Below, one piece after another: positions 26,179-40,202 of a DNA stretch of 64,000 nucleotides (positions are counted from its first letter, which is position 1; the number at the start of each line of letters is the position of its first letter). Made by a program: the position numbers and the translations under genes. The notes beneath the pieces are model-generated. The model ran no database searches. It was not told the origin of the DNA and saw only the letters and a list, made by a program, of their open reading frames with translations. The DNA is from Sandaracinaceae bacterium. Its GTDB lineage: Bacteria > Myxococcota_A > Polyangia > Polyangiales > Sandaracinaceae. The stretch spans positions 67,909 through 131,908 of the forward strand of contig JBGAQA010000006.1 of NCBI GenBank assembly GCA_044220955.1. Reading direction: 5' to 3'.

Positions 26179-26193
26179 TGGCACATCGGTTGC
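26179..26193 (+). promoter_or_regulatory. sigma54 (-24/-12) promoter
   Basis: TGGCAC-ATCGG-TTGC matches TGGCAC-N5-TTGC exactly, in a 550-bp intergenic region facing the operon. Confidence 0.7.
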
Positions 26194-26532
26194 GACGGGC
26201 GGACGCCCCAGGGACCCCTCTCGTTCGCGCGCGTGCGTCGGGTGACGTTCGCCGCCGATCGGGGCGGCCTCGGGCGAGGCTCGGTACGGACGACAGCGAC
26301 TCTTGGTGACGAAACCTGGTTGACAGGTACGCGCGGGTGGGTCCTACTCGCGCGCCCTCGGGCTCCACGCCCGTGCTCCGTCTCCTCGCGGGCGGACATC
26401 TCGTGGTCGGCGTTCGTCCGGCCGTGCTCCTTTTCTCTCTTCCTCGCTCTGTCCCCGGTCTCGAACGACTCGAAACCCGCTCGCATTCCACGGACTCGCA
26501 GCTCGACGCAGATGCTCGACGGAGAAGCCTCG

Positions 26533-35500: not shown

Positions 35501-37356
35501 CCACCGCGTCGACGATGGACTACCCGGGTGACCTCTCGGACATCATGGGCATCGGTCTCTACGACCGCGCCGCGGTGTACTTCAACTACTTCAACGAGAT
35601 CGAGGCCTACTCGAACCACTGCATGGACACGGACGGCGACGGCATGATCGAGGAAGCCGAGTGCCGTAACCCGGGCAACGTCGCCGCGACCTCGCCCTCC
35701 AACCCGAACTACCCGCAGACCTCGGCCGAGGGCATCCTCCGGTCGGACCAGTTCTCGCGCGACCTCATCCCGTGGTACCGCGGTGGTGACCACTGCTCGA
35801 CCGACTCGGAGTGCCCGTACTCCTCGGCCGGCGCGGGCAACGGGCAGACCATCACGCAGCGCTGCGTGACGAACCCGCGCTACTCGACCATCCCGCTCCC
35901 GTGCGGGACGGCCGGGTCGGACGCGACTCACTGCATCTGCTCCAACATCGACTCCGACTTCGTCGACTACGCGGACGGCAACGCCTACCGCGACCGGCGC
36001 TCGGGTCAGGAGATCTCGCCCGTCACCTATCTCTTCTGCTCGAACCCGCGCCTCAACGACATCTCGTGGTGCAACACGTTCGACGCGGGCGAGAACTTCC
36101 AGGAGGTGATCGCGAACTGGCGCTCCGAGCTCCAGAGCCGCTACCTGACGAGCTACTTCCGGCGGCATCGGCGCGGCTTCTATGCGGGGCCCCGCGCGAC
36201 GCGCTACATCCCGGACGCAGCGAAGATCTACCAGCACCTGCTCTTCCGCCTCATCTACGAGCCGCGCTTCACGACCAACAGCGGCCCGCTCGGCTTCGAC
36301 GATCAGTATGCCGCGTCGGTGGACGTCATGAACTGGTTCGCGGAGATCGCGACGACGCCGGAGCCCGGATCGTACGACTTCGACGCGACGATCGGCGACC
36401 ACGGCGCATACGTCCACATGGGTGAGGAGCCGGGCATGCCCGGGGCCGAGCTCTCGCTCGACGTCGGCCAGGGCTTCTACCACTGGTCCCGCTACCAGGA
36501 CGGCGCGCTCGGGTTCTTCCGGATGGAGCGCGTCGGAACCTTCTGGGACAAGCTCTACGCCCTCTACGCGCTCACCATCCGCGACTGGGGTCTGAGCTAC
36601 ACCATCGACGAGCGCTACTACATCAACTTCTTCTCGTTCTTCCCGGTGGAGATGACCGAGCTCTTCGGTGGCTTCATCCTGGACAACGACGACTGGTTCG
36701 CGCCGCGCGTCCGCATGGACCCGGTCGGCGGGACCTCGCACGTGCAGTACGTGAACTGGTTCCGCGCGCCGGACCTCTATGGCCGCGGCTGCAGCGACCC
36801 GACCACCGGCGTTCGCGGTCCGTGCCGGCGCGCGACCTCGGTCGCGTTCCCGAACCCCGTCATCCAGGGCGCGTCGGACGACATCCTCCGCTTCTACGCC
36901 ACGAGCTTCGCGCTCGCCGAGTTCCCGGTCTTCTACGACAACTCGTGGGAGCGCCGGCTCGACATCATCGCCCTCGGCGGCGGCGACACCATCACGATCC
37001 CCGACACCCAGCGTGACGGCACCCAGACGTGCGCGTACGGCACGAGCGTGCTGACGTCGCCCGGCCACGTGAACGGCTGCACGGCGGCCGACGCCGACTA
37101 CATCACCTACACGTCCGACCACCTGCACACGACCTACGTCGCGGTGAAGATCCGGTCGCGTGACACCTACAACCTGGAGGAGGAGCAGCTGGGCTTCCAG
37201 TACCTCCTCGGGCTGACCCAGGACCAAGAGCTGGTGCACACGCTGCCGGCCGGCGCCGAGCGCGACCGCGTGGCCCAACGTCTCCAGCGCAACGAGTCGT
37301 TCCTCTGGGTGCTCATCCAGCTCCAGCACGCGTACGGCATCAACTCGTACCTCTGA
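32593..37356 (+). CDS. giant Cys-rich lipoprotein, metzincin-type zinc metalloprotease (paralog)
   Basis: lipobox GGAGC; HELGHGLGLEH (35206-35238) and Met-turn ASTMDY; colinear motifs with the upstream gene; start uncertain within 32545-32608. Confidence 0.85.
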   Translation: MNSTMMKKQTLGLALVLSVAGALALGGAGCSVLPQVNRVQTNLIDKSVFEGDWWYTRTVIQLDDDAAYAIGAAGSGAPWAGAMANYDIAAQSGVIGRIRWVIDENFLYAYRATEVIPGSNADAHSASFRGSPLAVYRIEAHVDVRQEYNPGTGEPTNVISENSSDRRWYDRRFIRVDWSQNLVTFGQFGDSLEIDELFGTFRRESAPLGVADIGNSHQSMLNGTADLPAEWAPQIVRVADDASYRFRNEWPTNLQDTVHYMSFVTQEIWTPAQCFGSACGTSIAITTRDAFLRIPPNHEYAVETLANSEYDRFGIIRTEQRTYLRGGLDRSQLAEHCRADTDCSTGQCDESQHICVGGLTDELGETDFLTYYRLRHNFYANSFRHDAAGATIPCVSDWQCSGRFDDNGDGMFDGVPGSLCDQAAHVCTLPLADRDVREVAYYLSPGYPRYLLRSSFELVGQWNEVFMRGNRALSGRAAPTGMPVACQGNNPTDYCFCGSNGVVAGEVDPATRTCPFRVDWFASVAEQTAAGVTDPYNCWIEGPDDVAHPEAFDSYDASWTGLHFTSDPSMDSECMLVLHVNSCDAHPATATDPGQPCEQLGDIRYNMFNYVSAAASGFCGVMQPMQDPTNGEAIVSPINMGGQCLDNFGVQPLEWWPILRGEVPTDDILSGDEVRRYFAAIGSTIGPTGIAPAADPGFDPPDPSRPALPVDMHSFFMDQIAANLPGARQLHGSEGRAMLFSDRMGRVAGTELERRFAEASASEGFPAPTEVERMAATALDGPGVIPQRMDLDDAATMARMSPFQPSFLDGTLDDIRHERELMNHGSCMMMERPAVVYASQFGEYWANAFRGVSLPEARVRWAQAWHRAVMQHELGHGLGLEHNFAATLDRNNYLPAYYNIALADLRNNRDGSAGPDGIPDLVLPRLEDFDLAANGGNQDNQITGDEQTRWLRAMQDVRHRRNAAGMGNYTTASTMDYPGDLSDIMGIGLYDRAAVYFNYFNEIEAYSNHCMDTDGDGMIEEAECRNPGNVAATSPSNPNYPQTSAEGILRSDQFSRDLIPWYRGGDHCSTDSECPYSSAGAGNGQTITQRCVTNPRYSTIPLPCGTAGSDATHCICSNIDSDFVDYADGNAYRDRRSGQEISPVTYLFCSNPRLNDISWCNTFDAGENFQEVIANWRSELQSRYLTSYFRRHRRGFYAGPRATRYIPDAAKIYQHLLFRLIYEPRFTTNSGPLGFDDQYAASVDVMNWFAEIATTPEPGSYDFDATIGDHGAYVHMGEEPGMPGAELSLDVGQGFYHWSRYQDGALGFFRMERVGTFWDKLYALYALTIRDWGLSYTIDERYYINFFSFFPVEMTELFGGFILDNDDWFAPRVRMDPVGGTSHVQYVNWFRAPDLYGRGCSDPTTGVRGPCRRATSVAFPNPVIQGASDDILRFYATSFALAEFPVFYDNSWERRLDIIALGGGDTITIPDTQRDGTQTCAYGTSVLTSPGHVNGCTAADADYITYTSDHLHTTYVAVKIRSRDTYNLEEEQLGFQYLLGLTQDQELVHTLPAGAERDRVAQRLQRNESFLWVLIQLQHAYGINSYL

Positions 37357-37402
37357 CGCACCTGCACGGTCACGGCTCCGCCGGTGACCCCACCCAGTCG
37401 AG

Positions 37403-37436
37403 AGCCCCGATCCTCACGGATCGGGGCTTTCGGTTT
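37403..37436 (+). terminator. probable intrinsic terminator of the protease operon
   Basis: AGCCCCGATCC-TCAC-GGATCGGGGCT 11-bp stem followed by TTCGGTTT. Confidence 0.7.
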
Positions 37437-37549
37437 CTGGAGACGGACGCGCCGGCGCCGCGTCGACGCGCGACACGGATGTCATGGGAGGCGACCTGGA
37501 TGGACGGGCGCGCGCTGGATTTACACGCTTTTCGGGGGGGATCCCCGCG

Positions 37550-37564
37550 TGGCACCGTCATTGC
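37550..37564 (+). promoter_or_regulatory. sigma54 (-24/-12) promoter
   Basis: TGGCAC-CGTCA-TTGC matches the consensus exactly, in intergenic DNA. Confidence 0.68.
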
Positions 37565-37575
37565 CTTAGGTCGCT

Positions 37576-37838
37576 GTGCTCTTCGGCGAGGCCACGCTCT
37601 CCAGGCCAGCCTCACCGTCGTGTGCCTTGGCTTCCTTTCTTCGTCCTTTCTTCGTCCTTTTCTCTTTCGCCGTCTGTGTCGCGTTCGCTTCTGCTTCGCC
37701 TCGCTCGCCTTGCTCTTGGCTCGCTTCTAGGAAGACGTCGCTCGCGGACCGCATGTTCCTTCCGTCGTGCGGTCTTGGCTGATCCACACGGCCCGAGCCG
37801 CAAGGCGACCGGCCGCGTCTTGACGGTCCGCGATTTTT
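37576..37838 (+). ncRNA. candidate sigma54-dependent CU-rich small RNA (or long leader)
   Basis: follows the sigma54 motif; no A in 37615-37728; hairpins 37747-37774 and GCC-GCAA-GGC; ends in a TTTTT tract; no convincing ORF. Confidence 0.4.
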
Positions 37839-37909
37839 CACGAACGCCGCGCTCTTCGCCGAGCGCGGCGTTCGCTTTTCAGGCCGCGGGTCGGGTATAT
37901 TCGCCCACG

Positions 37910-38305
37910 ATGACGAGAGGTGGCTGGCGTCGAGCGGGTGTCGTCGCGCTCGCGCTCGCGCTCGGGGCGTGCGGTGCCGCCTCGGCGGAGCTGCGGCGGG
38001 CGGAGCAATCGTACGAGCAAGCGCGCTACGAGAACGCGCTCTCGTGGCTCGCGGACCTCGAGCCCAACGCGCCGACCCTCGACCATGGCGAGCGCGCTCG
38101 GTACTTCTACGTGCGCGGGATGACCGAGTATCGCCTCGGGCACCGCCCGGAGGCGCTCTACTATCTCGCCGTCGCGCGTGAGATCTCGGGCGAGGACGGG
38201 GAGGGCCTGCGCGAGGAGCAGCGGGACCTGATGACCCGCACGCTCGCCGAGCTGATGCCGACCGATCCGTTGACCCATCAGCCGCCGGACGCGCCGGCGG
38301 ACTGA
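37910..38305 (+). CDS. small TPR-like lipoprotein
   Basis: LALGAC lipobox; AEQSYEQARYENAL, YFYVRGMTEYRLG..EALYYL. Confidence 0.75.
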   Translation: MTRGGWRRAGVVALALALGACGAASAELRRAEQSYEQARYENALSWLADLEPNAPTLDHGERARYFYVRGMTEYRLGHRPEALYYLAVAREISGEDGEGLREEQRDLMTRTLAELMPTDPLTHQPPDAPAD

Positions 38306-38321
38306 AGACCTCGGCGGCCGA

Positions 38322-40202
38322 TCATCCGTTCTTCAGCGCGGCCTGACGTGCGAGCCAGGTCGCGGCGGCGGCGTGTCCGAGGAGCCATGGGCCGGTCACG
38401 AGGACGGGCAGCGCGACGAGCGTCGTCGGAACGACGGCCTCGACGAGGAGGTAGGCGGCGAAGCCCAGGCTGACGCCGACCACCAGCGGCAGCAGGCGCT
38501 TGTTCTGCAGCAGGAGCAGCACGCCGCCCAGCGGGATCAGCGCCGTCAGGGCGATCGTCGCGGTGAGCACTCCGACGTGCGCGAACGAGCCGGCGTGGGC
38601 GAGCGCGCCCGGAACGCCCCCGGCCAGCCAGGGCTCGAGCAGGCCGAGCCCGAGCGCCGAGAACGGCAGCACGGCGAGGCCCCCGGCGACCACGAACGCG
38701 ATCGCCGTGGTGAGCGCCGGCGCGACGCCCAGCTTGCCGCGGCGCCTCAGGCTCCCGAGGACCAGGGCTCCGAGCGCGAGCGCGGCCAGACCGCGCATAC
38801 CGCTCTCCGTGTCCTCGGTCCGCGTGAGCGCCCCGTCCGCGCGCACCAGACCGGCGCCGTAGTGCTCGACGTCGCCGACCGGCTCGGCCGTGTCGCGGAG
38901 CACTCGCTCCACCGCATCGGGATCCGTGACGCCGGAGGCCCGTACGAGCGCCGCGACTCCGGCGACGTGGGGGGCGGCCATCGACGTGCCCTGCCACGCG
39001 AGGTAGTCGAAGCGGCGCACGTCGCGGCCGACGATCGTGTTCTGCAGTACGCCGTCGGGCAGCCCGTCGCCGTTCTGGTCGACGCGCGTGTCGCCCCCGG
39101 GCCCCACCACGTCGAGGCCCTGCCCGTAGCACGAGTAGAAGGAGAGCTCGCGGTCGTAGCGAACGGCGCCGACCGCGATGACGTGGTCGTGGCGCGCCGG
39201 GTACTCGACGGCGTTCGCCGACGAGTTGCCGGCGGCCGCCACGATCACGACGCCGTGCTCGTGCGCATAGTCGATCGCGCGCTCGACCGTCCGCGAGCGC
39301 ATCCCGCCGCCGAGCGACATGTTGATCACGTCGGCGCCGTGATCGGCAGCCCAGCGGATCGCCGACGCGATGGCCGCCCAGCCGCCCGCTCCGCTCGCGT
39401 CGAGCACCCGGAGCGGCATGATCGAGGCCGAGGGCGCGACGCCTGCAACGCCGAGGCCGTTGTCGGTGCTCTGCGCGATCGTGCCCGCCACGTGCGTGCC
39501 GTGCCCGTGTTCGTCGTCCGGGTACGCGTCGTCGGCCACGAAGTCCCAGCCGGGAACGAAGCTCGTCTGCCCGAGATCGGGCGCCTGCACGAAGCCGCCC
39601 GCGCTCCGGTACGCCACGCCGGTGTCGATGACGGCCACCACCACGCCCTCGCCGCGGCCGCGCGGCCAGGCGGCGGGCATGCCGATCTGATCGAGGTGCC
39701 ACTGGTGCGAGTAGTAGGGATCGTTCGGCACGAACCGGTCGCCCCCGTCGCGCGGTGCGACGAGGACGTCCGGCCTCGCGATCGCGCCGGCGTCCGTGCG
39801 CTCCGGCACGGCCCAGAGGTGCTCGACCTCGACCGTCTCGACCTCTGGATCGGCGCCGAGCGCGCGGAGCACGTCGGGGACCTCGCTGCGCGGGACGCTC
39901 AGGCGGTAGATCTGCGCGTCGGCCTCCATGGGGTGGTCGAGGTCGGGCAGGTACGCGTAAGGCGCGACCGCCTCGACGAGCTCGCGGCCCACGACGTCGC
40001 GGTCCTCGGCGGAAGCGCCGTCGTCGAGATCGACCACGATCGCGCCGGTCTCGGGATCCAGCCGCGCGGGGATCGCGTCGACGGCGCTGACGTCCGGCTC
40101 GGCGGCGCCGAGGCCAGAGGAGCCGACCCGGACGGCGATCGAGGCCGAGATCAGCGCCAGCCCGGCGACGACGAGGATTGCGATGCCTGCGCGACGCGAC
40201 AT
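38322..40202 (-). CDS. S8 (subtilisin-like) serine protease with multi-TM C-terminus
   Basis: VAVIDTG, HGHGTHVAGTIA, AAAGN, GTSMAAPHVAG; about 5-6 hydrophobic helices at the C-terminus; GGAGG RBS. Confidence 0.92.
   Translation of the reverse strand: MSRRAGIAILVVAGLALISASIAVRVGSSGLGAAEPDVSAVDAIPARLDPETGAIVVDLDDGASAEDRDVVGRELVEAVAPYAYLPDLDHPMEADAQIYRLSVPRSEVPDVLRALGADPEVETVEVEHLWAVPERTDAGAIARPDVLVAPRDGGDRFVPNDPYYSHQWHLDQIGMPAAWPRGRGEGVVVAVIDTGVAYRSAGGFVQAPDLGQTSFVPGWDFVADDAYPDDEHGHGTHVAGTIAQSTDNGLGVAGVAPSASIMPLRVLDASGAGGWAAIASAIRWAADHGADVINMSLGGGMRSRTVERAIDYAHEHGVVIVAAAGNSSANAVEYPARHDHVIAVGAVRYDRELSFYSCYGQGLDVVGPGGDTRVDQNGDGLPDGVLQNTIVGRDVRRFDYLAWQGTSMAAPHVAGVAALVRASGVTDPDAVERVLRDTAEPVGDVEHYGAGLVRADGALTRTEDTESGMRGLAALALGALVLGSLRRRGKLGVAPALTTAIAFVVAGGLAVLPFSALGLGLLEPWLAGGVPGALAHAGSFAHVGVLTATIALTALIPLGGVLLLLQNKRLLPLVVGVSLGFAAYLLVEAVVPTTLVALPVLVTGPWLLGHAAAATWLARQAALKNG

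Follow-up and report, generated by a model that had tools for sequence, protein, structure and literature searches.

Pxr is one well-studied regulatory RNA of the myxobacteria. CsrB/CsrC and RsmY/RsmZ are RNAs of variable length and poor alignability that carry a repeated short motif. CrcZ is a non-coding RNA that needs sigma54 and an enhancer-binding activator and presents several short single-stranded motifs, as set out in the accessible text of its description (PMC5113210), and Pxr is stated, in the accessible part of one report (PMC5568312), to be limited to one suborder. The locus considered here lies on contig C268 of a 7.5 Mb genome (72.5% GC, 87.9% complete), within a stretch of 64,000 nucleotides that was analysed as a whole and is referred to below as the window. 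The DNA runs that contain this stretch come from metagenomes of bioreactors, activated sludge and sludge. The locus, which a 1603-aa met-zincin-like gene (with a terminator of its own) precedes and a 131-aa lipoprotein gene follows, is very probably a genuine non-coding RNA gene, and its features are listed below.

37395..37440, plus strand: hairpin that terminates the upstream met-zincin-like operon (z -7.54), separating the operon from the RNA gene
37471..37484, no strand assigned: enhancer palindrome [CT]GACA-N4-TGTCA, 79 bp ahead of the sigma54 box; an FHA-GAF activator is predicted to bind here
37550..37564, plus strand: sigma54 -24/-12 box TGGCACCGTCATTGC, an exact motif kept in relatives; +1 predicted near 37576
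37576..37879, plus strand: predicted non-coding RNA of about 304 nt with 8% A (fold z -2.73), its strand inferred from promoter and terminator
37584..37617, plus strand: conserved core hairpin with the cap GCU-CUCCA-GGC, immediately 5' of the first repeat
37615..37728, plus strand: U/C tract with CUU repeats, largely single-stranded, 114 nt without A
37747..37774, plus strand: stem CCGCAUG/CGUGCGG with a UUCCU loop, kept within the genus; alone not significant (z -0.58)
37783..37840, plus strand: species-specific insert with a GCAA hairpin and T5 (37834-38); not a terminator
37841..37879, plus strand: intrinsic terminator that ends the RNA, formed by the hairpin 37841-37874 and a U-tail (z -5.45), near-identical in 5/5 aligned genomes
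37896..37901, plus strand: -10-like TATATT, 8 nt ahead of the lipoprotein ATG
37910..38305, plus strand: lipoprotein gene of 131 aa with no Pfam or NCBIfam family; positional marker of the RNA

The initial annotation had recognised an exact sigma54 motif just past the operon terminator, and the box is indeed present there and conserved in relatives. Exact boxes number two in the window and 12 genome-wide, and a box alone is little proof, because the chance expectation with at most one mismatch is 2.1 in the window. The enhancer palindrome had been overlooked. Only two enhancer-box pairs occur in this genome, both with the 79-bp spacing, one at the RNA locus and the other behind the activator gene described below (a looser control gave one match). 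Across the phylum, 35 of 401 genomes matched the enhancer-box pattern against none for the control, and the pairs, read by eye, mostly precede genes of the signal-peptide or lipoprotein-like kind. Two further near-identical copies of the enhancer, at C257:2494 (-) and C11:45880 (-) of the same genome, have no recognisable same-strand sigma54 box downstream. The second box of the window (26179-26193) precedes a three-gene operon encoding two 1600-aa met-zincin-like proteins, where this enhancer is absent and the long leader has a short U/C-rich stretch (26440-26500).

The full predicted RNA folds better than 99 of 100 shuffles. Alignment of the core hairpin in 13 sequences from two genera has 89% of cells paired and only one pair with two-sided change, so that covariation support for it is thin. 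The repeats of the tract begin with CUUGGCUU at 37626 and continue as CUUCCUU, two copies of CUUUCUU, UUCGCUU and GCUU, with TCCTTTCTTCG repeated in tandem at 37633-37654. The absence of A is not unique, as the 7.5 Mb genome has 36 A-free runs that are longer than this one; the tract is the genome's most U-rich 100-nt window on either strand (45 U) among windows with no more than eight A. The 114-nt run without A at 37615-37728, the tandem repeat, the stem 37747-55/37766-74 presenting the loop UUCCUUCCGU and the TATATT at 37896-37901 are all as first described. That description had also ended the RNA at the GCAA hairpin and T5 tract, at a length of about 260 nt. Both elements exist, but the segment 37783-37840 is no more stably folded than its shuffles (z 0.13) and is missing from four same-genus relatives, and the predicted length is about 304 nt because the real terminator is 37841-37879. 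Three relatives have about 110 nt at the 5' side that are missing from the window copy, and strain contigs carry 11-, 4- and 9-nt deletions inside the U/C tract. The TATATT is likely to be the lipoprotein gene's own leaderless promoter.

Six RNA runs contain 8-11% of the words of 36500-39000, and all six (five samples, three studies) yield one contig of 196-238 nt that lies wholly within 37587-37826 and has no loose ends; in DNA run X1, the contig extends past this region on both sides. RNA contigs of the upstream met-zincin-like gene end at 37371 and 37401, and none but one 34-nt partial piece was found over 37402-37586 or the lipoprotein gene, an uncovered part that proves nothing. In run X19, the RNA piece has a depth of 3.0, no deeper than other pieces (2.4-5), and a 247-nt RNA contig, probably a relative's copy, matches 37590-37621 followed by CUUGGCUU. 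These contigs are a good hint rather than proof, because they reveal neither strand nor ends nor level, and this same 2.5-kb stretch served to select the runs. Together with the aligned relatives and the conserved enhancer and box, they leave a stand-alone, plus-strand, sigma54-dependent non-coding RNA, as initially proposed, well supported.

Conservation in relatives had been named beforehand as a test. DNA search recovered true homologues only in 4/5 same-genus genomes, the remaining matches being terminator look-alikes, and since it reaches only same-genus genomes, the lipoprotein gene was taken as a positional marker. This gene is found in 30/32 genomes of the family and 145/201 of the order, both tallies including the unpublished genome G026. 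The 77 loci examined comprise 29 of 30 family loci (G026 left out) and 48 from the 119 matching genomes outside the family, eight of these from the search output and 40 chosen for spread. The palindrome stands 60-150 bp ahead of a sigma54 box in 56 of the 77 loci, across 11 families, with none in a reversed-sequence control, and the CUU motif is kept in 53 of the 56; such counts describe range and not significance, because kin are not independent. A terminator was called by a strict rule in 37 of the 56, and the upstream neighbours of the locus vary among relatives. The enhancer-box pair is absent at two family loci that are cut by contig ends and both have a U/C body, and also, among the 77, at all nine loci of family f18, all four of f11, single loci of f6 and f10, two of f9 and one each of f7 and f17. 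Three of these misses (f10, f7 and f17) resemble variants by eye, and two of five tested f18 genomes hold, at another place, a version of about 100 nt with one motif and a terminator. At L074, L094, L161 and L162, in other families, the pair stands ahead of very short terminator-ended units of about 55-110 nt, possibly minimal members or other small RNAs. Comparable -10 hexamers occur a few bases ahead of the lipoprotein ATG in many relatives, as judged by eye.

The enhancer-box pair follows directly after one activator gene in 6/30 phylum loci, and likewise in two more genomes. The copy in this genome (C301 105644 (-), L109) encodes an FHA-GAF-AAA-HTH protein. Its C-terminal 61 aa, which include the DNA-binding helix, are present as a single copy, at 65-94% identity, in 115 of 121 genomes (a tally that includes G026). 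This synteny suggests binding, and the activator of the RNA is thus likely to be this conserved FHA-GAF sigma54 enhancer-binding protein, for which a predicted binding site and targets would be gained as a near-universal single-copy activator of the order. Behind the activator gene on C301 come its predicted site, a sigma54 box and a pair of lipoprotein genes that belong to no known family, an arrangement that recurs across the phylum. Two mRNA leaders under the same enhancer (L164, L167) carry a CUU-N-GCUU word immediately 5' of the ribosome-binding site. The cultured Sandaracinus amylolyticus encodes relatives of the activator at 76-77% identity, and a viral scan for the activator returned no match. 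M. xanthus Nla18, which we take to have an FHA domain, was considered as a possible counterpart.

The 56 bodies range from 111 to 712 nt (median 312), with a median of 11% A and 29% U, and share little alignable sequence. What recurs is a word: CUU[ACG]GCUU, present in the 53 bodies mentioned above, has 141 occurrences where dinucleotide shuffles give 7.5, and CUU[ACG]CUU has 110 where they give 20. Copies of CUU[ACG](G)CUU number 0-13 per RNA and grow with body length (r 0.50); the window copy has one full CUU[ACG]GCUU before its terminator, plus partial ones. Motif-bearing units are expanded in tandem in several relatives, and indels occur among strains. Pairing, period and open reading frames were counted in a set of 28 bodies that includes one non-family locus and G026, two of the bodies being shortened by the automatic terminator rule. 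In this set, the motifs are more unpaired than the rest of the body (0.65 vs 0.42), which is weak evidence because U-rich tracts are naturally unpaired, and autocorrelation is highest at lags 5 and 4 rather than 3. In mRNA leaders, the motif shows only a mild excess (24 copies against 10.9 for mononucleotide shuffles; n=3265), which could come from terminator tails, and clear CUU repeats were not seen, by eye, in the leaders of RRM and cold-shock genes.

Promoter and terminator stay fixed while length varies freely, units come and go in tandem and one single-stranded word is conserved, which is the pattern of a protein-titrating RNA, with CrcZ as the sigma54-driven precedent (PMC5113210). Multiple accessible copies of one short motif are found across the family, as for a protein-titrating kind. 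The chance that the RNA is a CsrB/CrcZ-like multi-site protein sponge with a new motif is judged to be about even. The FHA-GAF protein would bind the palindrome and switch on both the RNA and a few lipoprotein operons; single-stranded CUU-N-(G)CUU words, in varying number, would stand exposed in the RNA between a few hairpins; and these words would titrate an RNA-binding protein away from its mRNA targets, which would couple kinase or metabolite signals to post-transcriptional control. Of the two mechanisms offered by the initial annotation, sequestration of a pyrimidine-binding protein fits best, the partner so far being a matter of candidates: the genome encodes two RRM proteins and one cold-shock protein, while CsrA, Hfq and ProQ were not found in it at 87.9% completeness. 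It counts against the sponge that the repeated words could equally be pairing seeds, as do the single full motif of the window copy and the weak excess in leaders. More tentatively, and with somewhat less than even confidence, the order may possess a Csr-like system of a new type, in which the conserved FHA-GAF activator would connect Ser/Thr-kinase signalling with the CUU-repeat RNA and the RNA in turn would titrate a bacterial RNA-binding regulator, Hfq, CsrA and ProQ not having been found in these bacteria. A CsrB-like reading of the minus strand was rejected, as AGGA is not enriched there and CsrA was not found in the 87.9% complete genome.

The main rival reading, base pairing of the repeats and of the UUCCUU or CUCUCCA loops with purine-rich leaders, for example of lipoprotein mRNAs, is rather unlikely. 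Pyrimidine loops are exposed, UUCCUU is enriched in the 56 bodies (72 vs 26 in dinucleotide shuffles) and the UUCCU loop is invariant in 5/5 same-genus copies, but that loop is aligned in the genus only and no single seed is kept across families. The anti-Shine-Dalgarno words are depleted against the same shuffles (CCUCC 34 vs 61, CUCCU 40 vs 80), which makes the initially suggested pairing with AGGA/GGAAG ribosome-binding sites a poorer fit, and the complement of the main motif is not enriched in leaders (11 vs 9). A duplex screen of the start regions of one genome gave no convincing target: the tract and loop segments, two of the three used, did no better than shuffles, and the cap-loop segment had one start-region duplex at -29.0 against the best of four shuffles at -22.6 to -25.4, each over a third of the regions.

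The variable tract flanked by conserved hairpins, together with the one-motif versions in f18, might instead suggest a long precursor from which short active pieces are cut, as Pxr-S is from Pxr-L, or a ribonucleoprotein scaffold; this is improbable, as single RNA contigs of 196-238 nt span most of the body, though contigs cannot show single molecules. A leader or attenuator of the downstream lipoprotein gene is more doubtful still. It draws on same-strand linkage in 53/77 loci and on the lipoprotein-like genes that follow the pair elsewhere in the phylum (by eye), but a strong terminator intervenes and the lipoprotein gene has its own -10. Of the 56 units, 53 lie on the strand of the lipoprotein gene and three are inverted, and because of these three the unit is not a lipoprotein leader. 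That the stretch is a functionless low-complexity spacer or a decay fragment of the upstream operon, as the commonness of A-free runs might allow, is very improbable given an enhancer, box and motif kept across 11 families, an intervening operon terminator and upstream neighbours that differ among relatives. The mRNA of a small protein, either the 36-aa plus-strand or the Lys/Glu-rich minus-strand frame raised initially, can practically be dismissed: open frames are present, as chance ones are in about two thirds of the bodies, but no ORF is common to the 28, the window copy has no ATG-started ORF of at least 15 aa, strain indels (11 and 4 nt) break both frames, the stop codon of the plus frame is altered and the repeat period is 4-5.

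The Rfam search suggested in the initial annotation fits an uncatalogued RNA, with nothing significant in the window (best E 0.97), one tRNA in 40 homologue loci and one sub-threshold ctRNA match in 20. No published description of a CUU-repeat RNA was found in the accessible literature, taken without supplements or the M. xanthus ncRNA survey (Whitworth and Swain 2020, via PMC8538405). The CUU-repeat RNA family is real, order-wide and uncatalogued, a second myxobacterial RNA family unrelated to Pxr that spans at least 11 Polyangiales families and to which sequence search is blind beyond the genus. As its motif matches no known sponge target, the RNA is a ready-made bait for post-transcriptional control in these bacteria.

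Going by the accessible parts of its descriptions (PMC5568312, PMC5684412, PMC11928866), M. xanthus Pxr (RF01812) is likewise myxobacterial and sigma54-driven, with hairpins and a terminator, but measures 108 nt against the 111-712 nt seen here. The RF01812 covariance model matched neither the window nor the homologue loci, and its positive control recovered 7/7 pxr loci; the same search of the phylum sample is uninformative because 0/121 and 0/401 genomes matched. The pxr loci, taken from metagenome contigs, have a different enhancer: none of 11 carries [CT]GACA-N4-TGTCA within 330 bp, and repeats of the TTCA/TTGCA-N-TGAAA type stand there instead. The locus does not lie behind pxrR/nla19, the best PxrR match (~52%) being on C253 and not on C268. 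Both membership in Pxr and PxrR as the driver of the RNA were rejected on these grounds. Behind the PxrR ortholog itself (C253 ~2040-2215, L110) stand PxrR-type repeats, a sigma54-like box and a C8-loop hairpin with no Rfam match, likely a Pxr-like RNA beyond the suborder from which pxr is reported.

With CsrB/CsrC and RsmY/RsmZ, the CUU-repeat RNA shares variable length, poor alignability and a repeated short word, but GGA is depleted in its bodies (144 vs 204 in shuffles) and CsrA was not found in the 87.9% complete genome. From CrcZ/CrcY, as far as the accessible text describes them (PMC5113210), it differs in being A-poor and built on CUU, where CrcZ has A-rich motifs (AAnAAnAA) that bind Hfq/Crc, and in its likely FHA-GAF activator in place of CbrB, Hfq not being found in this 87.9% complete genome. 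The likeness to CrcZ/CrcY, on the same source (PMC5113210), lies in a multi-motif RNA under sigma54 and an enhancer-binding activator, with box and enhancer conserved here and the identity of the activator inferred.
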